The position numbers and the translations under genes were made by a program. Positions 1 to 20,964 of a stretch of 20,964 nt of DNA are shown here, in pieces; position 1 is the first letter of the stretch, and the number at the start of each line of letters is the position of its first letter. The stretch is from the NCBI RefSeq assembly GCF_900105015.1, contig NZ_FNLK01000013.1, positions 1 through 20,964 of the forward strand, given 5' to 3'. The notes beneath the pieces are model-generated. The model did not search any database. It saw only the letters and a program-made list of their open reading frames with translations, and was not told the origin of the DNA. The DNA comes from Schaalia meyeri (GTDB lineage Bacteria; Actinomycetota; Actinomycetes; Actinomycetales; Actinomycetaceae).

Positions 1-3205
<3,205 letters not shown>

Positions 3206-3721: not shown

Positions 3722-3769
3722 CAGGTCGCCAGTGTGGCCCCGCCACATCCGTCGATTCTAGGGAAGCCC

Positions 3770-5263
3770 ATGATCGCTACCATTTTGAGCTCGATCTCCG
3801 ACGTCATGTACACGTACGTCCTGGTCGCGCTCCTGATTGCAGTCGGCCTGTACTTCTTTATTCGTACGCGCGCGCTCCCGCTGCGCATGTTCGGGGAAGC
3901 AGTGCGCGTCGTTACCGAACCTCCGCACGAGGAAGGCGAGGTTTCCTCCTTCCGCGCCCTGATGGTTTCCACGGCCTCGCGCGTGGGGGTCGGCAACATC
4001 GCCGGCGTCGCAACGGCTGTGTCGCTGGGCGGCGCAGGATCCGTGTTCTGGATGTGGGTCATCGCGACGCTGGGCGGCGCGTCGGCCTTCATTGAGTCCA
4101 CGCTGGCACAGATCTACAAGAAACGCGGTCCTCACCACTCCTACGGTGGTCCCGCCTACTACATTCACACGGCGCTCAAGTGGAACTGGTTGGCCACGCT
4201 GTTTGCGATCGTCCTGATTGTCACCTACATGGGCGGCTTCAACCTGCTCGCCTCGTTTAACGTTGCCGACGCGTTCGGGCAGTACAGCTGGGCCAACGAC
4301 TGGACGCCCCGGATCGTGGGTGGCATTCTCGCGATCCTGATGGCCGTATCGATCTTCGGTGGCACGCGTCGCCTCACGGATGTCACAGGCTTCCTCGTTC
4401 CGATCATGGCGATCATCTACCTGGGCGTTGGACTAATCGTCATCGCCCTGAACTACCGCAACATTCCCACCATGTTCGCGGCGATCTTCTCCGGCGCATT
4501 CGATTTTTACGCGATGTTTGGCGGTTTCGCCGGTTCCGCGATGATGTACGGCATCAAGCGTGGCCTGTACTCGAACGAGGCTGGCGTTGGTTCCGCCCCG
4601 AACGCCGCCGCCTCGGCGTCGGTGTCGCACCCCACGAAGCAGGGCCTCGTTCAGATGCTGTCGGTCTTCATCGACACGATGATCATCTGCACGTTTACCG
4701 CCTTCGTGGTTCTGTCATCCGGCGTCGGATCGGGCCACGGCGTGACAGGCGCTCCGCTGGTCAAGGACGCGATGGCGACGGTCCTGGGACAGCCCATCGC
4801 GCAGGTTTTTATTTCGGTCGCGCTCTTCCTCTTCGCGTTCACGACCCTGGTGGGCAACTTCTACTACGCCGAAGTCAACTTCCGCTTCCTGCTGCGCAAC
4901 ATCCACTTGAAACACTGGATGCTCACCGCGTTCCGCGCCGTGGCCGCCGTGCTCGTGTTCGCCGGGGCCCTGCTGAAGTTCGAGGTTGCATGGAGCCTGG
5001 GCGACATCCTGATGGGCCTCATGGCCCTCATCAACCTGCCGGTGATCGTCGTCCTGGGACGCCAGGCCATCGACTGCATGAACGACTATTCGGCTCAGCG
5101 AAGGGCCGGACTGGAGCCCCACTTCAGGGCCTCCTCAATCGGCCTGAATCCCGCCGAGCTTGACTTCTGGCGCGACGACGCCCCGGATACCGCCGATGCC
5201 TCGGTAACCGAAGCCGCCGACTCCTCGGAGGACGCCGACCGCGCCACCCCGGTACCCGTGTAA
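3770..5263 (+). CDS. Alanine/glycine:cation (Na+/H+) symporter, AGCS family, 497 aa
   Basis: The multi-pass hydrophobic protein carries the family-typical RGLYSNEAGVGSAPNAAASA motif and the N-terminal IATILSSISDVMYTYVLVALLIAVGLYFFIRTRALPLRMF segment. I prefer the ATG at 3770 (GGGAAG SD at 3761-3766) over the ORF-track GTG at 3734, which adds 12 non-conserved-looking residues. Stop is TAA at 5261-5263. Confidence 0.9.
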   Translation: MIATILSSISDVMYTYVLVALLIAVGLYFFIRTRALPLRMFGEAVRVVTEPPHEEGEVSSFRALMVSTASRVGVGNIAGVATAVSLGGAGSVFWMWVIATLGGASAFIESTLAQIYKKRGPHHSYGGPAYYIHTALKWNWLATLFAIVLIVTYMGGFNLLASFNVADAFGQYSWANDWTPRIVGGILAILMAVSIFGGTRRLTDVTGFLVPIMAIIYLGVGLIVIALNYRNIPTMFAAIFSGAFDFYAMFGGFAGSAMMYGIKRGLYSNEAGVGSAPNAAASASVSHPTKQGLVQMLSVFIDTMIICTFTAFVVLSSGVGSGHGVTGAPLVKDAMATVLGQPIAQVFISVALFLFAFTTLVGNFYYAEVNFRFLLRNIHLKHWMLTAFRAVAAVLVFAGALLKFEVAWSLGDILMGLMALINLPVIVVLGRQAIDCMNDYSAQRRAGLEPHFRASSIGLNPAELDFWRDDAPDTADASVTEAADSSEDADRATPVPV

Positions 5264-6935: not shown

Positions 6936-7019
6936 GACTGACTCCTTCACTGGGAAAGGGGACGGGTGGAAGGCGAGGCCGAGGCCCAGACCGCGAGATC
7001 GGGGGCCGGCCTCTTCCGT

Positions 7020-8042
7020 TCACGAGAGCATCACCTGGCCGCCCGTGACGGGCACGGCCTGACCTGTCTCGTAGACCTGCTCGACAATGTAGAAGATCGC
7101 GCGCAGAACGTCGATGCCCTGCGCGCCGCGACGCATGGGGACCTTCGCCTCATAGAACTCTTTCACGTCGGCGACCGTCTTCGCACCGGGAACCTTCCCG
7201 GAGTTCAGGTACTGGACGAAGAGCCCGCGATCGGGATCGGACCACAGCGGCCCATCGTAGAAGTTTCCGGGGCAAATTGCGTTGACCTTCACGCCGTGGG
7301 CCACCATCTCCAGGGCAAAGGACTGCACCAGTCCGATGCCGCCGAATTTGCTGCCCGCGTAGGCGGCGTTCTTGTTCGAACCGACCAGGCCGGACTTGGA
7401 GTTGATCTGAATGATATCGCTCATCCACTGCGGGGCGGTCGAGTGCTGGCGGGCCAGCAGCTGCCCCAGGTGCTTGGTGACCAGGAAGAACGCCACGTAG
7501 TTGATGTCCGTGGAGAGGCGGAACGCAGCAGCATCCTGTTCCAGGACGGAACCCGCGCGCACGATTCCGGCGTTCGAGACGACCAGGTCGAGGCCGCCCG
7601 TGACTGCCTCGATCTCACGGGCCATCGCGGCAACCGAGTCCTCGTCGGCGACGTTGACCGTGATCGGGTGGGCGACGCCCTCGCCGCCGAGTTCCTGCGC
7701 CTTTGCCGCGGCCCCTTCACCGTTGAGGTCGGCAATGAACACGAAGCACCCGGCGTTGACCAATCCCCGGGCGATCTCCGCGCCGAAGCCCTGAGCTCCA
7801 CCCGTCACCAGCGCGACACGGCCGTTGATGGCGCGCTCGCCGGTGCGCGTGGCGCGAACCTCGTAGGTTTCCTCACCGACGCGCACAACGACGGGCAGTT
7901 CCGTCTCCTTCAGGGGGGCAGCGGGCGCCTCGGCCAGCGGGGCATCGAAGGTGAGGGTCGGTTCCTCCCGCGAGGGGGCCACGATCACCGGGCGCCCCAG
8001 GGCCTTCAGGAAGAGCCCGCGAACCTCGGGAGCGTTACTCAT
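7020..8042 (-). CDS. SDR-family oxidoreductase, sorbitol-6-phosphate 2-dehydrogenase (SrlD/GutD)-like, 340 aa with ~75-aa N-terminal extension
   Basis: The residues from GRVALVTGGAQGFG onward align by eye with E. coli SrlD along the whole core. Matching segments include IIQINSKSGLVGS, YAGSKFGGIGL, FYEAKVPMRRG and the C-terminal VTGGQVMLS. No in-frame start exists nearer the Rossmann motif. Confidence 0.9.
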   Translation of the reverse strand: MSNAPEVRGLFLKALGRPVIVAPSREEPTLTFDAPLAEAPAAPLKETELPVVVRVGEETYEVRATRTGERAINGRVALVTGGAQGFGAEIARGLVNAGCFVFIADLNGEGAAAKAQELGGEGVAHPITVNVADEDSVAAMAREIEAVTGGLDLVVSNAGIVRAGSVLEQDAAAFRLSTDINYVAFFLVTKHLGQLLARQHSTAPQWMSDIIQINSKSGLVGSNKNAAYAGSKFGGIGLVQSFALEMVAHGVKVNAICPGNFYDGPLWSDPDRGLFVQYLNSGKVPGAKTVADVKEFYEAKVPMRRGAQGIDVLRAIFYIVEQVYETGQAVPVTGGQVMLS

Positions 8043-8069: not shown

Positions 8070-9389
8070 TCAGTTGATCGATGTGGCTCGGGAGGCGACC
8101 TTTGCGGCGTCCTCGCCGTCCGCGATCGCCCTGCCCAGGGGCGCGTACTGCGCGATGCGCTCCGCGAGCGCATCGGGGCTCAGGCGACCCGTCCGACCCA
8201 GCAGGTGCAGGGCCGGATCCAGTGAGGACAGGGCCTCGTGCGCGACCAGCGCCCAGGTGGCCTCGTTGAGGTCGGCGAACTCCTGGCGGCGCAGCTCTTC
8301 GCACGTGAAGCGCTGGCGCGGCTGGTTGATATCGACACCCGAAATTTCGAGCATGCCGTGTGCCAACGCCAGCGCGTGGATCCGCTGAAGCTGCTCGGGC
8401 GTGTTGCGCGGCGGCATGTAGGTGACCGCGCGCAGCCCAATGTCTTCCATGTCCGCAAAAAGTTCGTCCAAGAAGTCGTCCTCGAACTTCTCGGCCTTCT
8501 TGTCTCCCGTCGGAGAGGCGGACACGTCGCCCAGGTAGGCGTAGGTGGCGATGGCGCCGATCGAGTCGGCGAAGGACACGACCTCGGCGGACGTGGGCAG
8601 CTCGTCGGTGGGTTGGATGTAGATGCGGTCCAGGTAGTTGGCCTTGAGGACTCCCAGCAGGTCGTACATCAGGTGCGGGTTGTCCGCGTCGGACATTACG
8701 TGCGCCAGCGAGTCCGGGATCCGCACCCCCATCGAGTCCAGGCCCTGGACCAGGGAAGGGCCGCGCCCGAAGCCGCGGATGAGAGCCGAGGCCATGGCCG
8801 CCAGCAGGTGACGCTCCGTGATGCCGCCCCCATTTGCGTACTGGGAGATGCCCACCATGTCTAGGCGCGGGTCGAAGGGCTCCAGGCCCAGGTCGGCGAG
8901 GATCCTGTTCGCCCTCTGGGCCATGGCAAGGGTGCGTTCCAACCGGGCCGCCCGCTTCGGTGCCAGCCACTGCGCGACCTTCTCACGCATCGGCGCGGGC
9001 ACGCCCTGGACCGTCATGTAGGCGACCCCCACGGAATCCGGGTTGTTGAGCTTGCGGTCACCAAGGGGCGTGCCCTGGCCGAAGCGGACGCGAATCTCGA
9101 AGCCGGTGACGGATCCCATGCCCAGGATGCGGGTCGCCTCGCTCATCTCGGCGGCGGCGGCGATGGAGTCGTGGTCGACGGAGCCGACGACCTTCAGACC
9201 CGCGCGTCGGGCGAGCAGCGCGGCGTGCGTGGGCGTGTAGGGGCTGAACGAGAAGCACGTGTGGATGTGGTTGTTCGACTCGGGCACCCACGATGGAAAG
9301 TGCTCGCGATCCGCGGTGGCGCGCAGCGCCTCAATGCGCTGAGCTGGCGTTAAGGCGGGGTCGTTGGTGATGTCCATGGGTTCTTCCAT
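8070..9389 (-). CDS. PHP (polymerase/histidinol-phosphatase) superfamily metal-dependent phosphoesterase, ~439 aa
   Basis: N-terminal NNHIHTCFS (HxH) and GSVDHDS motifs are typical of PHP domains. The start is placed at the ATG at 9389 (MEEPMDITND...); the ATG at 9377 is an equally plausible alternative. The first 91 codons of the ORF-track entry (to 9662) overlap the upstream E1 gene and the hairpin region, are Pro/Arg-rich, and are rejected. Confidence 0.8.
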   Translation of the reverse strand: MEEPMDITNDPALTPAQRIEALRATADREHFPSWVPESNNHIHTCFSFSPYTPTHAALLARRAGLKVVGSVDHDSIAAAAEMSEATRILGMGSVTGFEIRVRFGQGTPLGDRKLNNPDSVGVAYMTVQGVPAPMREKVAQWLAPKRAARLERTLAMAQRANRILADLGLEPFDPRLDMVGISQYANGGGITERHLLAAMASALIRGFGRGPSLVQGLDSMGVRIPDSLAHVMSDADNPHLMYDLLGVLKANYLDRIYIQPTDELPTSAEVVSFADSIGAIATYAYLGDVSASPTGDKKAEKFEDDFLDELFADMEDIGLRAVTYMPPRNTPEQLQRIHALALAHGMLEISGVDINQPRQRFTCEELRRQEFADLNEATWALVAHEALSSLDPALHLLGRTGRLSPDALAERIAQYAPLGRAIADGEDAAKVASRATSIN

Positions 9390-9433
9390 CTCTTCGTTGG
9401 GTGGAGAAAAACGTTGGTCGATCGTGTGGGGGG

Positions 9434-9480
9434 GGCGAGGCCGGGGCACAGGTGAGGAGGAGGTTCGCCCCGGCCTCGCC
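9434..9480 (-). terminator. GC-rich hairpin, perfect 14-bp stem (second hairpin downstream of the E1 gene)
   Basis: GGCGAGGCCGGGGC (9434-9447) pairs with GCCCCGGCCTCGCC (9467-9480), with a 19-nt loop. There is no U-tract immediately after it on the minus strand; TTTTT lies ~20 nt further on. This is a tail-less hairpin, so its terminator activity is uncertain. Confidence 0.45.
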
Positions 9481-9510
9481 GGGCTCGCGTCAGGGGTGCG
9501 AGCCGGGAGT

Positions 9511-9544
9511 GGGGGCGGGCCGGAAAGGGGAACGGCCCGCCCCC
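9511..9544 (-). terminator. GC-rich hairpin, perfect 12-bp stem, 6 nt after the E1 stop codon
   Basis: GGGGGCGGGCCG (9511-9522) pairs with CGGCCCGCCCCC (9533-9544), with a 10-nt loop. The TGA of the E1 gene is at 9551-9553 on the minus strand. No U-tail is present. Confidence 0.5.
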
Positions 9545-9550
9545 AAGGCA

Positions 9551-12004
9551 TCACAGGCCGGCGCGGTTCAGGCGCGCGATCTCGGCCTCGGTCGCGTGCT
9601 TCGTGGTGGGCACGTGGCCGGGCAGCGGCAGGATACGCTCGTGGATCGCGTCGAGGATCCACGACACCTGTGGGAAGAAGAACGACTCAAGCTCGGGTCC
9701 GGGCGTGATGCCGTTGCGAGAGCCGACCACGGCGATGGGCGCATCCAGCGCGTCGAAGGCCAGGGTCTGCACGTTCGCGGCTACCGTGTTGAGGAAGGAC
9801 CCGCGCTCGACCGCGTCCGAGGTCAGGATGAGACGGCCGGTCTTCTTCACGGACGCGATCAGCTTGTCGTAGTTCAGCGGGGCGACGAAACGCAGATCGA
9901 TGACCTCCGCGCTCAGCCCGTACTTCTCGGCCAAGACGTCGGCGGCCTCGAGGGCCTTGTAGACGGTTGCACCGTAGGCCGCGATCGTGATGTCGCTGCC
10001 CTCGCGGCGGATCGCCGGCTCGCCCTCTTCGGTCTCGTAGTATCCCTCGGGAACACCGCCGGGCTCGAAGTCCTCGCCCTTGTCGTAGAGCTTCTGGGAT
10101 TCGAAGAAGACGACGGGGTCGGTGCCGGACAGCGCCAGGTTAAGCATGCCCTTGGCGTCGGTGGGCGTGGTCGGGAAGTAGACCTTGAGGCCGGGGATGT
10201 GGGCTGTCAGCGCGCTCCAGTCCTGGCTGTGTTGGGCGCCGTACTTCGCGCCCACGGAGACGCGCAGGACGAGGGGCATCTTGAGCAGTCCGGCGCTCAT
10301 GGACTGCCACTTGGCCATCTGATTGAAGACCTCGTCGCCGGCACGTCCCAGGAAGTCGCAGTACATGAGCTCGACAACCGCCCGCCCGCCGGCCATGGCG
10401 TAGCCCACGCCCGCCCCGACGATGGAGGCCTCGGCGATGGGCGAGTTGAAGAGGCGCCGGTAGGGCAGCGCCTCGGTCAGGCCGCGGTAGACCGCGAACG
10501 CACCGCCCCAGTCGCGGTTCTCCTCGCCCCAAGCCGCCATCGTCGGGTCGGTCTGGAAGCGGTGCAGCATCGCCTCGAAGAGGCCGTCACGGAACTGGTA
10601 CATGCGCATCTTGGAGACAGGCTTGCCGTTTTCGTCCACGCTCGTGCGTACCTTCTTGGCCAGGGCCTTCACGCGCGGGTTGTCCGCCAGGTCGATCTCG
10701 GGGGTGGCGTCGTCGAAGGACTCGACCTTCTCGTTGGAATACATGACGGAGTCGATGTAGCCGTCCGCGACGCGCGAGGTGGTCTGGTCGTCGATGGTAA
10801 GCTTCAGGACCTTGACCAGCTTGTCGGTCAGCGAGGCCGTGTAGCCGTCGATGTCGTCCTGCGTGGTCAGGCCGTTGGAGATGAGCAGCTCGGAGTACTC
10901 CTTGATGCAGTCCGCCTGCTCCCACAGGTCGACCTCTTCCTTCGTGCGGTACGACGAGGCATCGGACGGCGAGTGCCCGGAGAAGCGATAGGTGATGGTG
11001 TCCATGAGGACGGGGCCTCGCCCCTTCTCCAGGATCTTCTTCTTGCGGGTGGTCGCATCCGCGACGGCCAGCGGGTTGAGGCCGTCGACGCGCTCGGCGT
11101 GCATGGCCTCGGGGTTGAGGGCCGCGCCCACGCGGGCGAGGATCTCATAGCCCATGGTCTCGCCGTAGGTCTGTCCGCCCATGCCGTAGAAGTTGTTAAA
11201 GAAGTTGAACAGGATTGGCGGGTTGCCGCCGTCCTCCTCGCGCCACAGGGAGCGGAACTGATCCATCGACGCGAAGGTGAGGGCCTCCCACACGGGGCCG
11301 CAGGCCAGCGCGGCATCGCCGACGTTGGAGATGACGATGCCGGGCTTGCGGTTGATGCGCTTAAAGAGCGCTGCGCCGTTCGCGATGGGGGCGCTTCCGC
11401 CGACGATCGCGTTGTTCGGATAGGAACCGAACGGCAGGAAGAACGTGTGCATCGAGCCGCCCAGGCCGCGATTGAAACCGGACTTGCGGGCGAAGATTTC
11501 GGCCAGCGCGCCGAAGAGGATGAAGTTCTCCGTCAGGTCCTTCGTGTCCGAGTACCCGATTTTCTCCGCGTAGGACAGGGTCTCGCCGCCGAGGAAGCCC
11601 TTCATGATGTCCTCGAGATGGGCCTCGTCCATCTGGTGCATGGCCGAGTAGCACTTAGCCAGGATCTCGCCGTGGGAACGGTGGGAACCGAAGATGAAGT
11701 CCTCGGGGGACAGCACGAAGCTCTGGCCCACGTAGGCGCTCTCCTGGCCGATGCCCAGGTGGGCGGGGCCGCGGTGGTTGTACTCGACGCCCTCCCACGC
11801 GCCGGTCTTTTTGATCGAGTCGAGCATGGACTCGAAGGTGCGCACGACGATCATGTCGTGGAGCATCTGGACCATGCCGTCCTGGCCGTAGCGGGCGATC
11901 TCGGTGTCGCGGTCGAAGCTGTACTGGTTGACGGGAACGTCGGGGAACTGCACGTGTCCCGGGCGACGCACCGCGGCGGGGTCGATGATGAGAGACTTAG
12001 TCAT
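9551..12004 (-). CDS. Fused E1 alpha-beta component of a lipoamide-dependent (acetoin/pyruvate/2-oxoacid-type) dehydrogenase complex, TPP-dependent, 817 aa
   Basis: The N-terminal ~400 aa resemble E1 alpha. Motifs there are [34 protein letters not shown], the TPP-loop region [11 protein letters not shown]...FFNNFYGMG, and YRFSGHS. The C-terminal ~352 aa (from [14 protein letters not shown], nt ~10609 downwards) resemble E1 beta, i.e. a transketolase-like Pyr domain plus C-terminal domain. Motifs there are [34 protein letters not shown] and [10 protein letters not shown]. Confidence 0.9.
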
Positions 12005-12036: not shown

Positions 12037-13404
12037 TCAGAGCTTGATGGCCCACGCGGCCTCGCGGATAACCTCGGAGACCGTGGGGTGCGGGAAGACC
12101 ACCTGGCGCAGGTCCTCGACGGTGAGTTCCATTTCGACGACGGCCTGCGCGCCCCAGATCATTTCGGCGGCGTACGCGCCAAGCACGTGGATGCCGAGGA
12201 CCTGGTGGGTGTCGGGGTCAACGAGGATCTTCGCCTCGCCGGGGGCCTTGAAGCCGTTCTCGGCGATGAAGCGACCGGACATGAGGGCGGGGACCTTGGC
12301 GACCAGGACGGGGCGCCCCTCGCGCTTGGCCACTGATTCGGTCAGGCCGACGCCAGCCGCCTCGGGGATCGAGAACACGGCCCACGGGACGGTGTGCCAG
12401 CGCATGACCTCGCCGCGCTTCTTGGCGTTCGGGTCCAGGATGTTTGCCGAGGCGATCTCCGCCATGCGGTAGGCGGCGTGGGCCAGCAGGGAACGGCCAG
12501 TGACGTCGCCGATGGCCCACACGTTCGGCAGGTTCGTGCGCATGCGATCATCCACGACGACGCCGCGGTTGATCTCGAGGCCACTCTCTTCGGCGCCCCA
12601 ACCGTCAGTCGCGGGACGGCGGCCGACGGCCATGAGAACCACGTCGGCCTCGATGCTCTTCTTTTCCTCACCCTTGGAGTAGTGGACGATTCCTCCATCC
12701 AGGGATTCGACCCGGCAGCCGAGCTCGAAGGTCACGTCCCTCATGGCGGCGCGGGCCCCCGCGGCCAGGTCGTCGTCCATGAAGGGCAGGATCTCGGGGG
12801 CCATTTCGATGACGGTCACCTTCGAGCCGAGCGTGGAGTACAGGGAGGCGAACTCGACGCCGATGACGCCGCCGCCGATGACCGCCAGGCGGGCGGGCAC
12901 CTCGGGCAGGGACAGGATGCCGGTGGAATCAACCAGCGCGGGATTGTCCTGCGTGCCGGGCAGCGGGGGCATGACCGGGACGGATCCAGTGGCGATGATG
13001 ACGTGGTCCGAGGTGTAGGTCGCGCCCTCCACGGTGACGCGGCCGGGGGCCTCGAGGTGGCCCCGGCCGTTGATGACCGTGACGCCCGCCTTGCGCTCGG
13101 TGGATGTCACCCCGGCGACCAGGCCGGAAACGACCTGGTCCTTCCAGGCCTGCATCTGCGCCCAGTTGACGGACACGCCCTGGGCGTCGACGCCGAACTG
13201 GCTGGCTTCCTTGGCGTGCAGGTAGTTCTTGGCGCCGTTGAGCAGGGTCTTCGTGGGGATGCAGCCCACGTTCAGGCAGGTGCCGCCCAGGTACTGTTCC
13301 TCGACCAGCGCGACCTTCTTGCCCGCGTGCCCCAGGCGCTCGGCGGCCAGGTAGCCCCCGGGGCCGGCCCCCAGGACGATGACGTCAAAGTGTGTCTCGC
13401 TCAT
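12037..13404 (-). CDS. lpd: Dihydrolipoyl dehydrogenase (E3), 455 aa
   Basis: Contains the FAD-binding motif DVIVLGAGPGGY and the redox-active disulfide motif GGTCLNVGCIPTK. It also has an NAD-binding motif (LAVIGGGVIGVEF) and a C-terminal interface domain with HPTVSE. An AAGAGGA SD lies upstream. Confidence 0.95.
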   Translation of the reverse strand: MSETHFDVIVLGAGPGGYLAAERLGHAGKKVALVEEQYLGGTCLNVGCIPTKTLLNGAKNYLHAKEASQFGVDAQGVSVNWAQMQAWKDQVVSGLVAGVTSTERKAGVTVINGRGHLEAPGRVTVEGATYTSDHVIIATGSVPVMPPLPGTQDNPALVDSTGILSLPEVPARLAVIGGGVIGVEFASLYSTLGSKVTVIEMAPEILPFMDDDLAAGARAAMRDVTFELGCRVESLDGGIVHYSKGEEKKSIEADVVLMAVGRRPATDGWGAEESGLEINRGVVVDDRMRTNLPNVWAIGDVTGRSLLAHAAYRMAEIASANILDPNAKKRGEVMRWHTVPWAVFSIPEAAGVGLTESVAKREGRPVLVAKVPALMSGRFIAENGFKAPGEAKILVDPDTHQVLGIHVLGAYAAEMIWGAQAVVEMELTVEDLRQVVFPHPTVSEVIREAAWAIKL

Positions 13405-13420: not shown

Positions 13421-14761
13421 TCAGGCCAGGACGGTCACGTCGATGTTCTCGATGGCGGCGACGAGGTCGCGCAGGAATCGCGCGCCGTCCGCGCCGTCGA
13501 TGACCTGGTGGTCGATCGTGAGCGACAGGTTAAGGCGCTGCTGGGCGCCGACGGTACCGTCGGGGGCGAAGGACGGGCGCGGGGTGATCGAGCCAACGCC
13601 GAGGATCGCCGTCTGGGGCAGGTTGATGACGGGCGTGAAGGTCTCGATCCCGAAGGAGCCGATGTTGGAGACCGTAAAGGTCCCGCCGCCCAGGTAGTCG
13701 GGCGACAGGGTGCCGTCGATGGCGCCGCCGGCCAGGCGCTTGGCCTCGTCGGAGAATGCCTTGAGGCCCAGCGACTGCGCGGAGCGGATGACGGGGACCA
13801 GGAGGCCGCGCGGGGTGTCGCATGCGAAACCGAGGTGCACCTGCTCGAACTGGGTGAGGACGCCGTCTTCGAGGTGGGCGTTGAAGACGGGGTACCTCGG
13901 CAGGGTGCGCGACACCGCGAAGCAAACCAGGTCGTTGAGGGTGATCTTGTTCAGCCCCAGGGCCTCGTCGGCGTTCTTGACCTTCTTGCGCAGGGCGAGG
14001 ATGCCGGCCGCGTTCGCCGTGGTGTTCAGGGTCAGCTGGGCGGTCGTGGTCAGGGACTCCATCATGCGCTTTGCGACGACCTTGCGCACGCCCCTCAGCG
14101 GCGAGGAGGTGGAAGCACCCGGGAAGTCGGCGGCCAAAGCGACAGCCGGGGCGGCGGGTGCAGCCGGGGCCTCGGGGGCGCGGTCCGCGTCGGCGACGCG
14201 CACGCGGCCTCCGATGCCGGTGCCTTCCGTGGCACTCACGCCGGCGACGCGCGCGGCGGAGGTGAGGACGGGACCCGAGGCGATCGCGGCGGCGACGTCG
14301 CGCTCAATGACGCGTCCATGGGGGCCGGATCCCTCGGTGATAGCAGAAGCGTCGATGCCGGCGCTGGCGGCGAGGGCGCGGGCTCGCGGGGAGACGGCGC
14401 CCGTGGCTCGCTCGGTTACAAACGCTGGGGCGGCCGTTTCGATGGGAGCGGCTTTGTTATCCTGCGGGGCCTGCTCGCAGGCGGAGGCGTCGCCTCCGGG
14501 AACCAGGCCGGAGATGTCCTCTCCGGGATCGCCGACGATGATGAGGGGATCCTTGACGGGGACCTCATCGCCTTCTTCCCACAGAAGCTTCAGGACGGTT
14601 CCCTCGGCGGTCGAGGGCACCTCCATCGTCGACTTGTCGGTCTCGATGGACGCGAGGGTCTGGTCGACGGCGACGGTGTCGCCCTCGGCGATCATCCACT
14701 CGACGATGATGCACGACTCAACAGAGTTGCCCAACTGGGGCATCACCACGATAGTGGCCAT
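13421..14761 (-). CDS. Dihydrolipoamide acyltransferase (E2) with one lipoyl domain, 446 aa
   Basis: The start MATIVVMPQLGNSVE follows a perfect AGGAGG SD (rc of ~14767-14773). The lipoyl-lysine motif is ASIETDKSTMEV. There is an Ala/Pro linker and a subunit-binding domain (VSPRARALAASAGIDASAITEGSGPHGRVIERDV). The catalytic motif is TIDHQVIDGADGARFL, where the canonical form is DHRxxDG (Gln here instead of Arg). The 68 upstream codons of the ORF-track entry overlap the DeoR gene and are rejected. Confidence 0.9.
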   Translation of the reverse strand: MATIVVMPQLGNSVESCIIVEWMIAEGDTVAVDQTLASIETDKSTMEVPSTAEGTVLKLLWEEGDEVPVKDPLIIVGDPGEDISGLVPGGDASACEQAPQDNKAAPIETAAPAFVTERATGAVSPRARALAASAGIDASAITEGSGPHGRVIERDVAAAIASGPVLTSAARVAGVSATEGTGIGGRVRVADADRAPEAPAAPAAPAVALAADFPGASTSSPLRGVRKVVAKRMMESLTTTAQLTLNTTANAAGILALRKKVKNADEALGLNKITLNDLVCFAVSRTLPRYPVFNAHLEDGVLTQFEQVHLGFACDTPRGLLVPVIRSAQSLGLKAFSDEAKRLAGGAIDGTLSPDYLGGGTFTVSNIGSFGIETFTPVINLPQTAILGVGSITPRPSFAPDGTVGAQQRLNLSLTIDHQVIDGADGARFLRDLVAAIENIDVTVLA

Positions 14762-14771
14762 GTGTTTCCTC

Positions 14772-15521
14772 CTAGACGATGCGCAGCTTCGTGCGCTCGG
14801 CCAATTCCTTGATGGATTCTTCGGGGATCTCATCGTCGGTGATGATTCCGGTGACCTGGTCGATCCCCATGAAGCTGACGAAGCCGGCTTCCCCGTACTT
14901 GGAGGAGTCGGCGAGCAGCCACGTCTCTTGTGCGCGGGTGCGCATGATGGAACCGACCTGTCCACCCTCCACGAGTTGGGTGGTCAGGCCGCGGTCAACG
15001 CTGAATCCGTCGGTTCCGAGGAACGCGACACGCGCGTTGAAGTCATTGATGGCGCGCTCGGCGACCGGCCCCACGAGGGATTCGGACTCGGCGCGGAAGT
15101 GCCCGCCCGTCAGCGTGATGTTGAGGTTCGGGTTGGAACGGGCGTTGGCGAACACCAGGACGGAGTTGGTCAAAACCTGGACTCCCCGCTTGCCGGTGAG
15201 GTACTTGACGATGAGGGCGCAGGTGGTGCCGGCCTCGATCATGATGCGATCGTCGTCGTGAATCATGTCGGCCGCGGCCCGCGCGATGCGCTCTTTCTGA
15301 TCGACGCGGTCGCTTTGACGCAGGTGAATGTTGCGGAACGTGGTGGGCCGGGCACCTCCGTGGGTGCGCACGAGGTATCCCTGCTCGTCGAGGGTTTTCA
15401 AGGAGGCGCGCACGGTGACGGGGGAAACGCCCAGGTCGGAGGCGAGCTGGGCGACGCTCACCTCACCCTCGCGGGCGAGGCGATCCAGGATGTAGTTCGT
15501 GCGTTCCTCTGCACGTCCCAT
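14772..15521 (-). CDS. DeoR/GlpR-family transcriptional regulator, 249 aa
   Basis: Contains an N-terminal wHTH (ILDRLAREGEVSVAQLASDLGVSPVTVRASLKTLDEQGYLVRTHGGA) and a DeoR C-terminal sugar-phosphate-binding-type domain. I prefer the ATG at 15521 (AAGAGG SD 6-7 nt upstream) over the GTG at 15536. Its TAG stop (14772-14774) lies inside the SD of the E2 gene. Confidence 0.9.
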   Translation of the reverse strand: MGRAEERTNYILDRLAREGEVSVAQLASDLGVSPVTVRASLKTLDEQGYLVRTHGGARPTTFRNIHLRQSDRVDQKERIARAAADMIHDDDRIMIEAGTTCALIVKYLTGKRGVQVLTNSVLVFANARSNPNLNITLTGGHFRAESESLVGPVAERAINDFNARVAFLGTDGFSVDRGLTTQLVEGGQVGSIMRTRAQETWLLADSSKYGEAGFVSFMGIDQVTGIITDDEIPEESIKELAERTKLRIV

Positions 15522-15577
15522 GGGACACCTCTTCACAGATGAGCGACATTCCCGTCACTTTGCCTTTCGTTAAGGAC

Positions 15578-15606
15578 AGAATAGTCACAAAAGCGAAAGT
15601 ATGCAA
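15578..15606 (-). promoter_or_regulatory. Candidate promoter of the deoR-E2-E3-E1 operon (TTGCAT - 17 nt - TATTCT)
   Basis: On the minus strand, TTGCAT occupies 15606-15601 and TATTCT occupies 15583-15578, with exactly 17 nt between them. It lies about 55 nt upstream of the DeoR ATG. It is flanked by an imperfect inverted repeat (15558-15569 and 15588-15599). Confidence 0.45.
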
Positions 15607-15712
15607 CATCACGTGCGGGGCAAATACCCGCGCGCATGCCGCGCGATAACGCCCGCACGCGCGCGCGTTACGGCGGCACACGATCGGCCGTCATGTCAGG
15701 AAAAACGCCGAT

Positions 15713-15738
15713 GCGGGCGGCCCGCAAAGGCCGCCCGC
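15713..15738 (-). terminator. Hairpin with downstream T-run in the fucU-deoR intergenic region
   Basis: GCGGGCGGCC (15713-15722) pairs with GGCCGCCCGC (15729-15738), with a 6-nt loop. On the minus strand it is followed by ATCGGCG and then TTTTT (15705-15701). Confidence 0.45.
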
Positions 15739-15784
15739 ACGACAGCTACGCTCCCCCCCCCTCGCGCCACTCGCGCGACACAAG

Positions 15785-15806
15785 CGAAACGAAAACGAAA
15801 CGAAAG
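15785..15806. repeat. Tandem pentamer-like repeat: CGAAA CGAAAA CGAAA CGAAAG
   Basis: Read directly from the sequence: four head-to-tail CGAAA(A/G) units. On the minus strand they read CTTTCG TTTCG TTTTCG TTTCG. Confidence 0.8.
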
Positions 15807-15854: not shown

Positions 15855-16283
15855 TTACTCCCCGGGCTGGCGCACCCCAACCGTCAGGAGCAGGTTGCCG
15901 TACAGACGCTGCTCGCCCGTCGCCACAATGATGCCCACTTCCTCGCTGCGCGCCGCGTCGTAGAAATCAAAGCGGGACAGCTCCCCGAACTCGACATCCG
16001 GCAGCGCCTCGCGGAACTCGCGGTGGATCGGGATATCCACCGTCTCCCCGTCGGCCGGGGTCATGATCTCCGCGCGCTCGATCGGGATCGTCCGCTTCAG
16101 CACCTCCAGGACCTGAAGGACATCCAGCATGCCCGGGGCCAGGTTTAAAGACACGAGCTCGCAGCGCGCTGAGACGCCCGTCGTGTGCGGATAGTTCGCA
16201 TCCGCCAGCAGAACCTTCGACCCGTGGCCGGCAGCCGCGAGTGCGCGCAGGAACTGGGGGTGAGTCATTGGACCGTACAGCAT
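15855..16283 (-). CDS. fucU: RbsD/FucU-family sugar mutarotase (L-fucose mutarotase-like), 142 aa
   Basis: Aligns by eye with E. coli FucU. Matching segments are the GHGSKVLLADANYP region (compare GHGDEIIFSDAHFP) and the C-terminal VATGEQRLYGNLLLTVGV (compare ITGERAKYGNILLKKGV). Confidence 0.85.
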   Translation of the reverse strand: MLYGPMTHPQFLRALAAAGHGSKVLLADANYPHTTGVSARCELVSLNLAPGMLDVLQVLEVLKRTIPIERAEIMTPADGETVDIPIHREFREALPDVEFGELSRFDFYDAARSEEVGIIVATGEQRLYGNLLLTVGVRQPGE

Positions 16284-16295
16284 GAACTTGCCTTT

Positions 16296-17291
16296 CTATA
16301 GGTGAGAGCTGGCCCGGATGACCAGCTCGGGATCGATGATGATGTCCTGGGAGGGGCCGCCAGCCATCAGAGAGCACACCAGGCGGACCGCCGTGCGCCC
16401 CAGGCGGTCAAAGGGCTGACGAATCGTGGTGAGCGGGGGCGCATAGGAATCGGCGCCGTCGATGTCATCGAAACCGACCACGCGCACGTCACGCGGCACC
16501 ACTCCCCCTCGCTCGTAGATGTAGCGCATCGCGCCCAGGGCCAGCTGGTCGTTCGCCGTCTGGATCCCCTCGGGCAGTCGGCCCGCCGCACGCATCACGT
16601 CGTAGCCGTCGCGCGAGTCCCACGAGTCGGGCTGCAGCACCACCGGGGTCACCCCGTAGCTCTCGCAGGCCTGTTCGTAGCCTCGCCTGCGCATCTGCGC
16701 GTCCGACCAGCCCATGGGCCCCGAGATATGAACGACGTCGGTCAGCCCCTGAGCGAGGAGATGCTCGGTGGCCAAAGATGCCCCGCGCACGTTGTCCACC
16801 GCGACCGTCGAAATGCCGTCCAGCCCCTTCTCGCTGGTTAGCACGAGCACGGTCGGAAAGCGCCCCCCGGCTTCGAGCACGACGTCAATCGTCGGATCCT
16901 GGCCGCCCAGAATAATGACACCGTCCACGTCGAAGGGGGCGAAGTCGTTCCTCAAACGGCCGTCGGGTCCGTACGCGTAGGACAGGGACACGTGGTAGCC
17001 CGCCTGCGCGGAAGCGTTGAGGATCGACAGGAGGACGCGCCCGTGCCCGTGGAACATGGGGGCGGCCAACACGACCTGCAACACGTCGGTGCGTTTCGCA
17101 GCCAGCGCGCGCGCCGCGTAGTTGGGCACGTATCCCAGCTCTTCGACGAGTTTAGCGATGCGAGCACGCGTCTTTTCGGAAACCTCCGGGTCGCCGCGCA
17201 CGACGCGCGACACCGTATTGGTTGACACGCCGGCCTGCCGCGCGATGTCGGCCAGCGAGACCTTCTTAGGCGCGGGGCGGGACGTGGACAT
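16296..17291 (-). CDS. LacI/GalR-family transcriptional regulator, 331 aa
   Basis: Contains the N-terminal HTH VSLADIARQAGVSTNTVSRVVRG and the hinge YVPNYAARALA, followed by a periplasmic-binding-protein-like sugar-binding core. Start is the ATG at 17291. The 39 upstream codons in the ORF track lie inside the kinase gene. The gene overlaps the 3' end of the kinase gene by 26 nt. Confidence 0.9.
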   Translation of the reverse strand: MSTSRPAPKKVSLADIARQAGVSTNTVSRVVRGDPEVSEKTRARIAKLVEELGYVPNYAARALAAKRTDVLQVVLAAPMFHGHGRVLLSILNASAQAGYHVSLSYAYGPDGRLRNDFAPFDVDGVIILGGQDPTIDVVLEAGGRFPTVLVLTSEKGLDGISTVAVDNVRGASLATEHLLAQGLTDVVHISGPMGWSDAQMRRRGYEQACESYGVTPVVLQPDSWDSRDGYDVMRAAGRLPEGIQTANDQLALGAMRYIYERGGVVPRDVRVVGFDDIDGADSYAPPLTTIRQPFDRLGRTAVRLVCSLMAGGPSQDIIIDPELVIRASSHL

Positions 17292-18675
17292 GGGTCGATG
17301 CGCTCGCAGCGATGACGGCGGACCGCTCTCCTTGGGCCAGGGCACCAATCGTCTCCAGCTGCGCCAGGAGGGAACCGAAGGTCGATGCCTCGATGGGACC
17401 GGCCACAACGGTGACGCCCGCGAGCTTCGCGGTCAGGTCACACAGCAGATGGTTGCGAGCGCCACCACCGACCAGGTTGAGCTGGTCGGGGGCTGCGCCC
17501 GTCGCCTGCGTCAGCTCGCCGATCGCGCGCGCGTAGCGACGGGCAAAGGATTCGATGATGACGCGCACGTATGCCGCCATCGAGTCGGGTCGAGCCGCCC
17601 CCTGCGCGTCCAGTGCCGCGTCGATCTTGCGCTGCATGTCGCCCGGGGTAGCGAAGGCCTCCTCGTCGGGGTTGAAGGTGCCCGAGGCAGGGGGCAGCGC
17701 GCGGGCCTGCGCGACCAACTCGTCGGTGTCCGTGGGAGTGCCCTCGCGCTCCCACTGGCGCTGGATCTCCTGGAGAATCCACATGCCGGTGATGTTGAAG
17801 AGGGGGCGCACGCCCCCGTCGGTGCGTCCCTCGTTGGTGATGCCGAGCTCGAAGGCCGCGTCGCCCGTGAGGGGCGCGTCCTCGATGGCCCCCAGGACCG
17901 ACCAGGATCCGCAAGAGAGGAAGTAGGCGCGTTTACCTTCTTCGATGGGCAGGCCGTGGACCGCGCACGCGGAGTCGTGGGCGCCCCCTCGCACGACGGT
18001 GAGCGCCTCCAGGCCCGGCACTGTGCAGGGGCCGACGACGGTGCGGTCGGCGTCCAGGGACCCGAACCAGGCGCGCGGTATGCCCAGGCGGTTAAAAACC
18101 TGGTCGTTAAAGTCTGCGCCTCCCGGCGTCAGTAGGCCGGACGTGGAGGCAATCGTGCGGGACCAGCCAACCACGCCGGTCAGGCGGTAGGTGAAGTAGT
18201 CGGGCAGAAACAGGGCAGAGCGCACACGCTGGGCATCCCCCGGATTCTCCTGCAGGAAGGCGAAGAGCTGGTTCGCCGTGTTGATCGTCGCCGGCTGATT
18301 GCCCGTCATGTCAAAGAACTCGCGGTCACCGACGCGCACCCTGAAGGCCTCCAGGGTGCGGGAGGTACGTTCATCGCGGTACGCCACGACGTCGCCGACC
18401 AGGTTTCCGTCCTCGTCCAGGGGCGCCCAGTCGACGCCCCACGTGTCGATGGAAACGGTGCGGGCGTCGGGGAAATGCGCGAGCGCCTTCTTCAAACCAA
18501 CGATAGTCTCGGCCTCCATCGTCGCCACGTCCCACGTCAGGGTTCCGTCTTTGCGGCGCCGGGCCTGATGCTTAAAGCGGTAAATGTCGGTGACGTCCAG
18601 GCGTCCGTCGTGAAGCGTTCCGGCCAGGACTCGTCCGGAAGCGGATCCAAGGTCAACAGCAAGTACAGTGGTCAT
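17266..18675 (-). CDS. FGGY-family carbohydrate kinase, rhamnulokinase (RhaB)-like; probably L-fuculokinase by context, 469 aa
   Basis: Aligns by eye with E. coli RhaB. Matching segments are AVDLGSASGRV, TWDV, SIDTWGVDWAPLD, VAYRDERT, LPDYFTYRLTG, LSCGSWSVLG, ITNEG, NITGMWILQE, LVGGGARN and AGPIEAST. An AGGAGA SD lies 7 nt upstream. The gene sits immediately downstream of fucI. Confidence 0.9.
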   Translation of the reverse strand: MTTVLAVDLGSASGRVLAGTLHDGRLDVTDIYRFKHQARRRKDGTLTWDVATMEAETIVGLKKALAHFPDARTVSIDTWGVDWAPLDEDGNLVGDVVAYRDERTSRTLEAFRVRVGDREFFDMTGNQPATINTANQLFAFLQENPGDAQRVRSALFLPDYFTYRLTGVVGWSRTIASTSGLLTPGGADFNDQVFNRLGIPRAWFGSLDADRTVVGPCTVPGLEALTVVRGGAHDSACAVHGLPIEEGKRAYFLSCGSWSVLGAIEDAPLTGDAAFELGITNEGRTDGGVRPLFNITGMWILQEIQRQWEREGTPTDTDELVAQARALPPASGTFNPDEEAFATPGDMQRKIDAALDAQGAARPDSMAAYVRVIIESFARRYARAIGELTQATGAAPDQLNLVGGGARNHLLCDLTAKLAGVTVVAGPIEASTFGSLLAQLETIGALAQGERSAVIAASASTHVHVPPRA

Positions 18676-18787
18676 TGAAGGTCTCCTGTGGTGTGCCCTC
18701 GCTCGGCGTTTCCCATCGGTGGGCGGTGTGCGGCTTCCGTATCACCGAGACCGGGGCCTCGGTGAGGGAGTAGGCCGTGCGGGTGGA

Positions 18788-18830
18788 CCCGTTCGGGCTC
18801 AGGCGAAGAAGACACCCGAGCCCGAACGGG
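18788..18830 (-). terminator. Perfect 13-bp hairpin 7 nt after the fucI stop (partial terminator or RNA-stability element)
   Basis: CCCGTTCGGGCTC (18788-18800) pairs with GAGCCCGAACGGG (18818-18830), with a 17-nt loop. No U-tail is present. It lies in the 162-nt fucI-kinase spacer. Confidence 0.5.
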
Positions 18831-18837
18831 AATTGTT

Positions 18838-20601
18838 TCAGCGGTACATCGGGCCGAAGTTCTGGCAGGCACGGAAGTCCGCGCCCTCCAGGGATTCGGT
18901 GCCGAACGACGACCACGCCTTTGGCCGGAAGACGCGCTCCTCGGGCACGTTGTGCATGTTGACCGGAATGCGCAGCATGGACGCCAGGGTGATCAGCTGA
19001 CCACCGATGTGGCCGTAGGAGATCGCGCCGTGGTTCGCTCCCCAGTTGTTCATCACGTCGTAAACGCTCTTGAACGCCCCCTCGCCCGTGAGGTTCGGGA
19101 CGAACCAGGTCGTGGGCCATTCGATGTTCGTGCGCGCCTCGATCGTGTAGGCAACCTCGTCGGGCAGCTCCACGGAGTAACCCTCGGCGATCTGCATGAC
19201 CGGTCCCAGGCCCCGCACCAGGTTAATGCGGCACATGGTCAGGGGCATCTCGCCGGAGGTGCGGAAGTGCGTGGAGAAGCCACCGCCGCGGAAGTAGCCG
19301 GTCGAAGCCGGGTGGAAGGTCGTGGCCCCCAGCGTGGCCTCACGGTCCTCCTCGGTGAGTTCGTACCAGGGCTTAATGACGGGCTTGCCGTCGCGCATCG
19401 CCTTACCGGCGCCGTCAAGCGTGGTCGAACCGGAGTTGCGCAGGTCGAGCAGGCCCGCGGCTGCGCGGCCCTGCGGCTTCCAACCCGTCGCCTTCTCGAT
19501 GGCCTCCGGGCTCCAGTAGGTGCGCACGTCGGAGAAGATCTGCGGCGTGTTGGTCAGCAGGTACCCAAACAGCATGGACGCGCCGTTGAGCGAATCGTTC
19601 TCCGTGGCGACCACGGAGGGCTGACGGATCCCGGTCCAGTCGAAGTTCGTGTTCAGGATCGTTTCCATCACGTCGCCGTTGGGGAAGTGGTCCGTCCACT
19701 GGCGCTGGCCCTGGAAGCCCGCGGCGATGGCGCCGTGGCCACCTGCCTCCTCCTCGAAGCCCAGCTCAGCCAGGCGCGGGTTGCCGTGCATGAGGTCCCG
19801 TCCGATGAGCGTCATCTTCGTGACGAACTTCCACCAATCCTCGTGCTTGTCCGGGAACTGCCACTCCGGCGGGTTCCAGTCCTTGCCCTGGGTGAAGTTC
19901 TCACGGATCCACGTGTACGCCCGCTCGTACTCCTCGGGGTCGTAGATGCCCTCGTCGATGCGGCGCGTGAACTCGCTCATGTCGATGTATTCGTTGCGCA
20001 TGCCCAGGTACGAGCCGAAGAAGTCGGGGTCGACGACGGAGCCCGCGATGCCCATCGACACCGAGCCCATGGACAGGTAGGACTGGCCCTTCATCTGGGC
20101 GACGGCCAGGCCGGCGGTCGCGTAGTCCAACAGGCGCGTGCGCACTTCCTCGGGGATCGAGGTGTCGTCGGCATCCTGCACGTGCTCGCCGTAGATTCCA
20201 AACGCGGGGATGCCGATCTGGGCGTGGCCGGCCAGCGCGGCGGCCAGGTAGACGGCGCCCGGGCGCTCCGTGCCGTTGAAGCCCCAGATGGCGTGCGGCA
20301 TCGCCGGATCCATGTCCGTGGTCTCCGTGCCGTAGCACCAGCACGGGGTGACCGTGAGGGTCAGCCCGACGTTGTTGGCCCTGAACTTGGTGGCGCAGGC
20401 CTGCGCCTCGTGGACGCGTCCGATCGTCGTGTCCGCAATAACGACCTCGACGGGGCTGCCATCCGGGTAGCGCAGCGTGGAGGTGTAGAGGTCGGCAACG
20501 GACTTCGCCATGTTCATGGTCTGTTCTTCGAGTGACTCGCGTACGCCCTTGCGGCGGCCGTCAATCACGGGGCGGATTCCGATGCGGGGGTATTCTGTCA
20601 T
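18838..20601 (-). CDS. fucI: L-fucose isomerase, 587 aa
   Basis: Near-colinear match by eye to E. coli FucI. Matching segments are [114 protein letters not shown] and the C-terminal [19 protein letters not shown] is present. Confidence 0.96.
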
Positions 20602-20690
20602 TATTCCTTCATCCCTCTTGAAGATGTCGATGTCGGAGCGCGGGGGTTCTCACCCCCTCGGATCCTTCGGTTTACTGAAGTGCCGGGTCC

Positions 20691-20725
20691 GCGGGTCCCA
20701 CCCGCTCACGCTGGGTGGGACCCGC
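20691..20725 (-). terminator. Perfect 13-bp hairpin downstream of the ABC substrate-binding protein gene
   Basis: GCGGGTCCCACCC (20691-20703) pairs with GGGTGGGACCCGC (20713-20725), with a 9-nt loop. It lies 64 nt after the TGA at 20789-20791. No U-tail is present. Confidence 0.5.
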
Positions 20726-20788
20726 CGCGGGCCGCCGACGTCGATCTGCTTCGCCGGCCCCGGCCTGGTGCCCTATGGAGCTATCGGC

Positions 20789-20964
20789 TCACTCGTAGAG
20801 GTTCGCCTTGATCGCGGCGTTGTCGATGTTGGACTTGTCGTACCACGCGTAGCCCGAGTCGATGACCTTGGGCAGCTCGCCCTTGTTGATCGCGACGACG
20901 GCAGCCTTGACCGTGTAGTAGCCGATCTTGACGGGCGACTGGGTGACGGCGCCGGCCTCCGTGC
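20789..20964 (-). CDS. Sugar ABC transporter substrate-binding protein (RbsB/PBP1-like), C-terminal 57 codons only; gene continues past the right edge
   Basis: It is absent from the ORF track because it is truncated and short. My manual translation of the minus strand gives ...TEAGAVTQSPVKIGYYTVKAAVVAINKGELPKVIDSGYAWYDKSNIDNAAIKANLYE*. This has the typical C-terminal pattern of type-I periplasmic sugar-binding proteins. Location upstream of fucI suggests a fucose or related sugar transporter. Confidence 0.5.
   Translation of the reverse strand, partial: TEAGAVTQSPVKIGYYTVKAAVVAINKGELPKVIDSGYAWYDKSNIDNAAIKANLYE

Follow-up and report, generated by a model that had tools for sequence, protein, structure and literature searches.

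The window analyzed here, a 20,964-base stretch of Schaalia meyeri DNA, is an entire contig (C3) of a 2.03-Mb genome assembly (G000) that consists of 15 contigs and is 99.9% complete. All genes from position 5337 to the window end lie on the minus strand, and they include a set of L-fucose genes beside an operon that encodes a lipoamide-dependent dehydrogenase complex. The closest named relatives at the fucI locus are Actinomyces bouchesdurhonensis, Pauljensenia hongkongensis, and Schaalia suimastitidis. Comparative genomics suggests that the second operon, with the order DeoR-E2-E3-E1-PHP-SDR-MDR (SDR and MDR being short-chain and medium-chain dehydrogenases/reductases), replaces the FucA/FucO/AldA branch that is missing from fucose catabolism in this organism.

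The fucose genes and the lower pathway

The fucose genes of the window are the following:

20789–20964, minus strand: 3′ end (57 codons) of the gene for an ATP-binding cassette (ABC) sugar-binding protein, whose orthologue at locus L003 is a Peripla_BP_4 protein
18838–20601, minus strand: fucI, L-fucose isomerase of 587 amino acids (aa), with three Fucose_iso Pfam domains and a match to NCBIfam NF008220
17266–18675, minus strand: FGGY kinase of the RhaB / S. pneumoniae FcsK type, a predicted L-fuculose 1-kinase
16296–17291, minus strand: LacI-family regulator, probably starting at ATG 17291 and so overlapping the 3′ end of the kinase gene by 26 nucleotides (nt)
15855–16283, minus strand: fucU, RbsD/FucU mutarotase (99.6 bits)

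Profile and PDB matches bear out this gene order, which an earlier note had read from the window. The identification of FucI is unambiguous (1020 bits on NF008220 against a cut-off of 775), and the protein is 70% identical to streptococcal FucI. On the rhamnulokinase model the kinase reaches 341 bits (cut-off 528), and on the E. coli-type FucK model 77 bits; in the PDB it matches RhaB of E. coli (3e-85) and a crystallized L-fuculose kinase, FucK 4c23 of S. pneumoniae (1e-64). These matches suggest that it belongs to the rhamnulokinase branch, with a predicted specificity for L-fuculose. The remainder of the sugar-binding protein gene is found at the end of contig C8, together with the ATPase and permease genes. 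Homology shows the fuc operon to specify what would be a working upper pathway, in which ABC uptake, FucU, FucI, and the RhaB/FcsK-type kinase lead to L-fuculose-1-phosphate. Four GH29 alpha-L-fucosidases are encoded in the genome, indicating that fucose is a real substrate and making a dead-end pathway that piles up fuculose-1-phosphate implausible. D-arabinose is unlikely as the true substrate, given FucU at the locus, the four fucosidases, and the fucosidase and true FucK at a comparable locus from Rikenellaceae.

The canonical phosphorylative L-fucose pathway is encoded by fucPIKUR/fucAO and aldA in E. coli and by the fcs operon in S. pneumoniae. The window locus has FucU, FucI, an FcsK/RhaB-type fuculokinase, dedicated uptake, and a repressor in common with this pathway but differs from it in that the genome has no FucA, FucO, or AldA and that the lipoamide operon takes the place held by fucA in related genomes. 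The Pfam model for class II aldolases, PF00596, found no match genome-wide, while the same search was positive in 11 of 14 control genomes. A custom hidden Markov model, built from seven actinomycete aldolases and searched against six-frame translations of this high-GC DNA, likewise found no class II aldolase in the genome. No FucO-type iron-containing alcohol dehydrogenase scored above the cut-off genome-wide (best match, 27 bits), the search for an AldA-type aldehyde dehydrogenase yielded a single weak Aldedh match of 57 bits, and the genome has no pyruvate formate-lyase. Sibling genomes, including the single-contig G017, also gave no canonical lower pathway. Because FucA, FucO, and AldA were each looked for and none was found, the lower pathway does not qualify as the canonical route.

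The earlier note had reported no class II aldolase, FucO, or AldA in the window, which proved correct, and had allowed that fucA may simply lie outside it. Examination of the flanking and genome-wide sequence for fucA, fucO, and aldA, set beforehand as a refutation test, found none of them. Since the window is a whole contig, the sequence beyond position 20964 is in effect the 3′ end of contig C8, from which it is separated by a gap of about 690 missing bp. This end carries the ABC ATPase and permease genes and the start of the sugar-binding protein gene, with rplJ-rplL-MerR upstream, and it has no aldolase. The complete chromosome of P. hongkongensis shows an identical gene order with an aldolase on neither side. 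A fucA just outside the window was rejected on the grounds that the neighboring C8 end lacks an aldolase and that PF00596 has no match in the genome. We also rejected the class II aldolases of two siblings (G087 and G115) as hidden FucA enzymes; they are AraD epimerases (378 bits) encoded far from fucI.

The lipoamide-complex operon and its probable link to fucose

The adjoining operon comprises seven genes:

14772–15536, minus strand: DeoR-family regulator, first gene of the operon
13421–14764, minus strand: E2 dihydrolipoamide acyltransferase, with its real start at MATIVV
12037–13404, minus strand: E3 dihydrolipoyl dehydrogenase (TIGR01350, 464 bits, cut-off 409)
9551–12004, minus strand: fused E1 alpha-beta, dependent on thiamine diphosphate (ThDP), 817 aa
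8070–9389, minus strand: PHP-like metalloprotein of the cog0613 PHP fold, 439 aa, a core member of the cluster
7020–8042, minus strand: SDR related to sorbitol-6-phosphate dehydrogenase and to the RhaW domain, 340 aa with a 75-aa N-terminal extension
5337–6950, minus strand: divergent Zn-type MDR dehydrogenase, 537 aa

A ThDP-dependent E1 alpha/beta, a lipoyl E2, and an E3 are thus encoded together in one cluster. The E2 gene begins 11 nt after the DeoR stop codon, and its product has the lipoyl-lysine motif ETDKS, an E3-binding domain, and the catalytic motif DHQVIDG. E1 and E2 score highest against pyruvate dehydrogenase (PDH) models, with E1 falling below the cut-off on all of them. The housekeeping PDH is encoded apart, as AceE (1285 bits, cut-off 860) and its own E2 on contig C11, and two E2 domains besides that of the cluster, as well as an OdhA-type protein, are located elsewhere in the genome. 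An orthologue of the fused E1 (at least 70% identity) is present in only 13 of 151 Actinomycetaceae genomes. The separate AceE and E2, together with this restricted distribution, led us to reject the cluster E1 as the organism's own PDH.

The cluster has a phosphosugar flavor, seen in the DeoR regulator, the SrlD-like SDR, the PHP-like protein, and a HAD protein encoded in the Bacteroidales version. The SDR reaches 206 bits on the SrlD model NF009050 (cut-off 307) and 134 bits on the SDR domain of RhaEW. The MDR matches generic MDR domains only, with a best NCBIfam match of 37 bits (IolM) and PDB E-values of about 1e-6. It is 537 aa long, compared with about 420 aa in Bacteroidota and in the Actinomycetaceae genome G046, with about 170 aa inserted between its GroES-like domain and its Rossmann domain.

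The earlier note had named the E2-E3-E1 operon, an SrlD-like enzyme, and an MDR enzyme, but it overlooked the conserved PHP-like gene at 8070–9389, which belongs to the cluster and is fused to the SDR gene in some genomes, and it did not raise the idea that the missing aldolase could be the product of this gene. A 530-aa open reading frame at 8070–9662 was rejected as the extent of this gene, since the 91 codons with which it opens overlap E1 and are Pro/Arg-rich read-through; the gene begins at ATG 9389. A Pfam search gave no match for the window's PHP-like protein, while homologues from Bacteroidota pass the PHP model, and the family has at least 3,629 members. In Foldseek searches, the structure model (pLDDT 92) best matched BAD_1165 (3o0f), Cv1693 (2yb1), and RNase AM (9etk), with E-values of 2.5e-12 to 4e-10 and TM-scores of 0.67–0.74 on the target. 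The protein shares the fold, the N-terminal HxH motif, and the bridging Glu with cog0613 PHP phosphoesterases (His41, His43, and Glu98 being invariant) but differs from them in a helical insert of about 130 aa and in an incomplete set of trinuclear metal ligands. Specifically, S-D-G aligns to F-S-P, and none of the 29 homologues in the alignment keeps the Asp of this motif; His73 of the D-H motif is kept in the window's protein and lost in the Bacteroidota and fused forms; and the final metal motif of the family is G-x-[DE]-x-N instead of D-x-H. New invariant residues have appeared at Asn39, Asn115-Pro117, Glu192-Arg193-His194, Arg328-Asn329, and Asn355. As the third-metal ligands are not conserved, the PHP-like protein may not be a plain phosphatase.

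Three Actinomycetaceae genomes (G144, G078, and G055), all of which lack a canonical fucI, encode the PHP-like domain and the SDR as one fused protein of about 790 aa (794 aa in G144), and the adjoining genes are those of a RhaB-type kinase and of a distant FucI-superfamily isomerase. In G144 this cluster variant lies at L081:14286–15983 and L082:7151–11119 and includes a 566-aa protein with faint FucI-superfamily similarity and a kinase that scores 403 bits as RhaB-type; G078 and G055 have the same arrangement. The Rikenellaceae SDR orthologue carries a class II aldolase-like N-terminal domain, as in RhaEW.

Three further elements are found between fucU and the DeoR gene:

15788–15805, minus strand: three copies of TTTCGTT in tandem, which closely follow the stop codon of fucU and precede the terminator, the 7-mer being that of the candidate-operator arms
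15711–15740, minus strand: intrinsic terminator of the fuc operon, a 13-pair GC-rich stem (10 G-C pairs) followed by a T-run
15565–15598, minus strand: inverted TTTCG(C/T)T ... AACGAAA element, a candidate operator about 30–60 nt upstream of DeoR

The terminator divides the fuc genes and the DeoR genes into two adjacent operons, and we reject a single operon from fucI through E1 for this reason. The earlier description of the DeoR gene as the next gene downstream on the same strand stands, with the correction that it opens a separate transcription unit. A sigma-70 promoter scan gave no match. A 20-bp palindrome, TTTCGTTAGCGTTAACGAAA, lies at C8:238463, about 50 nt upstream of the fucose ABC ATPase gene, and is kept in four relatives; its arms recur about 20 nt apart as a conserved block upstream of DeoR. 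Across the 2 Mb of G000, the pattern TTTCG[TC]T-N(0-26)-A[AG]CGAAA occurs only at the ABC and DeoR promoters, and G017, G015, and G007 each have a single occurrence of the exact pattern, in every case at this locus. Since the motif was defined after the sites had been seen, it is suggestive of a common regulator rather than proof of one. LacI and/or DeoR probably co-regulate both operons via this TTTCGTT/AACGAAA element.

To compare the distribution of the two gene sets, we surveyed them at three levels. Within the genus, fucI is present in 20 of 24 sampled genomes, and 19 of these 20 carry an E1 orthologue on the fucI contig at a distance of about 9 kb, with sequence identities down to 76–78%, while E1 is absent from all four fucI-negative genomes. 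No PF00596 match lies near fucI in any of the genus genomes. Within the family, 12 of 150 Actinomycetaceae genomes have fucI without an E1 orthologue, and in 11 of these 12 fucI lies no more than about 3 kb from a class II aldolase gene, indicating that the fucI-adjacent position is held by either fucA or the lipoamide cluster. A set of 80 fucI loci from all phyla, each fetched as 20 kb of sequence, includes eight with the cluster, of which four belong to Actinomycetaceae, three to Bacteroidales, and one to Rikenellaceae; an aldolase is found in none of these eight compared with 48 of the 72 others. The Bacteroidales locus reads E1-PHP-SDR-HAD-MDR ... AraC-kinase-fucI, and that of Rikenellaceae transporter-fucosidase-GH116-fucI-FucK (E. 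coli type, 551 bits) ... GntR-E2-E1-PHP-SDR-MDR. In Arachnia the cluster lies 11 kb from fucU, and the genome has no PF00596 match. Because regulators and gene orders differ across these lineages, the association is not just one inherited block. Comparative genomics across three lineages and the common promoter motif support the link between fucose genes and lipoamide cluster that the earlier note had proposed, and the cluster is very probably involved in fucose catabolism.

Several of these loci have features of their own. In Arachnia, a lipoate-protein ligase gene (L006:15174–16307) directly follows fucU, between the fucose genes and the lipoamide cluster. At the A. bouchesdurhonensis locus (L001), tblastn finds E1, E2, E3, and MDR as short matches in a disturbed order, suggesting a rearranged or decayed cluster. 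In G046, a second operon (L085:2478–7244) is convergent to the MDR end of the fucI-linked cluster and encodes GntR, a bifunctional aldolase/SDR (656 aa), a cupin, an LsrF-like thiolase (456 bits, cut-off 297; a match to 3-hydroxy-5-phosphonooxypentane-2,4-dione thiolase), and a FucA-like class II aldolase. This second operon may be another acetyl-CoA-forming deoxy-sugar module.

The two gene sets might instead be adjacent by accident, with fuculose-1-phosphate passing to a promiscuous aldolase such as fructose-bisphosphate aldolase (Fba) or DeoC, or with the fuc genes serving another sugar such as D-arabinose or being the remnant of a pathway, while the substrate of the cluster would be something unrelated, such as acetoin or a polyol phosphate. 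The gene sets are indeed separate transcription units, the cluster occurs without a canonical fucI in G144, G078, and G055, and the genome encodes one class II Fba and one DeoC. However, the two sets are neighbors in Actinomycetaceae, Arachnia, Bacteroidales, and Rikenellaceae alike, under differing regulators and in differing gene orders; the distribution is complementary to that of fucA, co-occurrence in the genus is 19 of 20, and the two promoters have a motif in common. Furthermore, clusters without fucI still have a RhaB-type kinase and a distant FucI-superfamily isomerase, and Fba and DeoC are unsuited in their stereochemistry or in their class of substrate. We therefore regard incidental adjacency as very improbable.

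Candidate routes from fuculose-1-phosphate

To place the cluster among characterized enzymes, we compared it with the nearest known systems. To our knowledge, acetoin dehydrogenase (AcoA/AcoB as E1, AcoC as E2, AcoL as E3) is the only complex of its type that cleaves a CH3-CO-CHOH- ketol, not a 2-oxo acid, to acetyl-CoA and an aldehyde. It has a ThDP-dependent E1 alpha and beta, a lipoyl E2, and an E3, as in the cluster. In contrast to this system, the window's E1 alpha and beta are fused, its E2 is a standard PDH-type acyltransferase, and the best named matches of its E1 are PDH models below their cut-offs. The window also has a regulator of the DeoR sugar-phosphate type, PHP, SDR, and MDR genes, and deoxy-sugar neighbors, and the substrate is presumably a phosphorylated C6 ketol.

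A second precedent is the L-sorbose pair, in which the MDR SorE (L-sorbose-1-phosphate reductase) and the SDR SorF/SrlD (D-glucitol-6-phosphate dehydrogenase) shift the carbonyl between the two ends of a hexose phosphate. As in the window, an MDR and an SrlD-like SDR stand beside a step that forms a ketose-1-phosphate. The window pair differs in that its MDR is not recognizably SorE, its SDR is below the SrlD cut-off, and the product would be a 1-deoxy-ketose phosphate requiring a C-C cleavage that is foreign to the sorbose pathway. The earlier note had the SDR reduce and the MDR re-oxidize; these roles are probably reversed, since in the sorbose precedent it is SorE that reduces and the SrlD-type SDR that oxidizes the far end.

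The thiolase LsrF of autoinducer-2 catabolism removes the methyl-ketone end of a deoxy-sugar phosphate as acetyl-CoA, so that dihydroxyacetone phosphate (DHAP) remains. Its overall logic is that of the route proposed below, but LsrF is a single enzyme of class I aldolase fold that uses neither ThDP nor lipoamide, and G000 has no LsrF homologue, only a single DeoC-family match. Finally, RhaEW (YuxG), a bifunctional enzyme that is both L-rhamnulose-1-phosphate aldolase and a dehydrogenase of L-lactaldehyde (Rodionova et al. 2013, PMC3870299), has a RhaW domain related to the window's SDR. The latter has a 75-aa N-terminal stub in place of the aldolase domain, and in other genomes the PHP-like domain is fused at this position. 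None of these systems is a ThDP/lipoamide complex acting on a sugar phosphate, and full-text literature searches yielded no description of such a route.

In our analysis, the best explanation, to which we assign an even chance of being correct, is that the fuc operon and the lipoamide cluster work together by a carbonyl flip followed by cleavage to acetyl-CoA and a C4 phosphate. The MDR would reduce C2 of L-fuculose-1-phosphate to give L-fucitol-1-phosphate, and the SrlD-like SDR would oxidize C5, beside the methyl group, to give a 1-deoxy-ketohexose-6-phosphate with a CH3-CO-CHOH- end. The ThDP-dependent E1 would then cleave this ketol and pass the acetyl group to the lipoyl-E2 and on to CoA, with E3 re-oxidizing the lipoamide. 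The PHP-like protein would be an obligatory partner without a step of its own in this scheme. Stereochemical derivation leads us to expect D-threose-4-phosphate or L-erythrose-4-phosphate, and not directly D-erythrose-4-phosphate, from L-fuculose-1-phosphate. The predicted leftover, D-threose-4-phosphate, would be isomerized and enter the pentose-phosphate pathway. The same product is predicted from rhamnulose-1-phosphate, because the two sugars differ only at C4, the future aldehyde carbon. As outlets for a tetrose phosphate, the genome has transketolase, a short Tal/FSA, and a pair of RpiB genes. The two RpiB/LacAB-family genes lie at C14:68118–68531 and C6:26344–26721 of this 2-Mb genome, and one of them could encode a tetrose-phosphate isomerase, the part that EryI plays in erythritol catabolism.

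A number of observations weigh against this explanation. The MDR is too divergent to be called SorE-like, and the SDR, besides scoring below the SrlD cut-off, is also related to RhaW. The flip leaves a conserved PHP-like protein without a job, and D-threose-4-phosphate is not a central metabolite. A terminator separates the two operons, and the motif common to their promoters was defined post hoc. Moreover, absence of an aldolase is not the rule everywhere: G046 has both the cluster and a FucA-like gene beside it, and in Rikenellaceae a class II aldolase-like domain forms part of the SDR. RhaW is an experimentally proven lactaldehyde dehydrogenase (PMC3870299). According to a review, C. saccharolyticus forms 1,2-propanediol and acetate 1:1 from rhamnose and induces a 12-gene cluster of mostly unknown function (PMC4187192).

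As the flip gives the PHP-like protein no role, two further explanations deserve weight. In the first, which we consider unlikely, the PHP-like protein would be a new metal-dependent fuculose/rhamnulose-1-phosphate aldolase that yields DHAP and L-lactaldehyde, the SDR would convert lactaldehyde to lactate and the MDR lactate to pyruvate, and E1-E2-E3 would be a dedicated PDH; the pathway would then be canonical, with a non-homologous aldolase and full oxidation of the C3 unit. In its favor are the 134-bit match of the SDR to the SDR domain of RhaEW, a protein with experimentally established aldolase and lactaldehyde dehydrogenase activities (PMC3870299), and the fusion of the SDR to an aldolase-like domain in Rikenellaceae or to the PHP-like domain in G144, G078, and G055, which resembles a swap of equivalent functions. 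The highest scores of E1 and E2, against PDH models, and the loss of the third-metal ligands in the PHP-like protein also fit. Yet the structural relatives of the PHP-like protein are all phosphoesterases or nucleases, and there is no known aldolase of this fold. A second PDH, for a single sugar, would be redundant beside the AceE-type enzyme, MDR enzymes are not known as lactate dehydrogenases, and the 3 NADH formed per fucose would be awkward for fermentative anaerobes. Rikenellaceae, moreover, has both PHP and the aldolase-like domain, implying that the two are not simple alternatives.

The other explanation, which we hold to be rather unlikely, dispenses with the carbonyl flip: one dehydrogenase would oxidize C5 of fuculose-1-phosphate directly to 2,5-diketo-6-deoxyhexose-1-phosphate, E1-E2-E3 would take off acetyl-CoA, the SDR would oxidize the C4 aldehyde to 3-oxo-tetronate-4-phosphate, and the PHP-like protein (or the class II aldolase-like domain) would decarboxylate this to DHAP and CO2. 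Every conserved protein would then have a role, the end product would be a central metabolite, and the fusion of the SDR to either a PHP or a class II aldolase-family domain would be accounted for. The FucA-like aldolase of G046 and the fucI-adjacent aldolase of G062 both best match 3-oxo-tetronate-4-phosphate decarboxylase (NCBIfam, 129–149 bits, below the cut-off). LsrF offers a precedent for forming acetyl-CoA and DHAP from a deoxy-diketo sugar phosphate, and an LsrF-like gene adjoins the G046 cluster. On the other hand, the reasoning is purely chemical, and this scheme too would produce 3 NADH per fucose. It needs one alcohol dehydrogenase where two are strictly conserved, requires the SDR to be an aldehyde dehydrogenase, and calls for a decarboxylase of the PHP fold, of which none is known.

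The remainder of the window contains two features:

3734–5263, plus strand: Na+/alanine symporter gene
1–3207, minus strand: rRNA operon at the contig end (complete 16S, 1666–3207; 5′ part of 23S, 1–1267)

The rRNA operon lies about 2 kb past the last gene of the cluster, with the symporter gene in between, and its position at the end of the contig explains the assembly break.

A possible third route for L-fucose

Returning to the carbonyl flip and cleavage by the lipoamide complex, we tentatively propose, with somewhat more doubt than confidence, a third route for L-fucose, and probably for L-rhamnose, in oral, gut, and other anaerobes. In this route, a ThDP/lipoamide complex would act directly on a sugar phosphate, converting the methyl end to acetyl-CoA and keeping four carbons as sugar phosphate without forming lactaldehyde or 1,2-propanediol, and it would need a remodeled PHP-fold enzyme with a new, non-phosphatase activity.

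Fucose from mucin and host glycans is a key nutrient and signal for bacteria of the mouth and gut, and the 1,2-propanediol formed by its fermentation is the basis on which propionate producers are cross-fed. If the proposal is correct, the predicted fermentation products, ATP yields, and cross-feeding would change for every organism that carries the cluster, and the gap recorded in metabolic reconstructions as an incomplete fucose pathway would be closed. The complex would be the first of the 2-oxoacid-dehydrogenase type to act on a sugar phosphate, and functions would be assigned both to the PHP-like family, with its more than 3,600 proteins, and to a distinct family of fused E1 enzymes.

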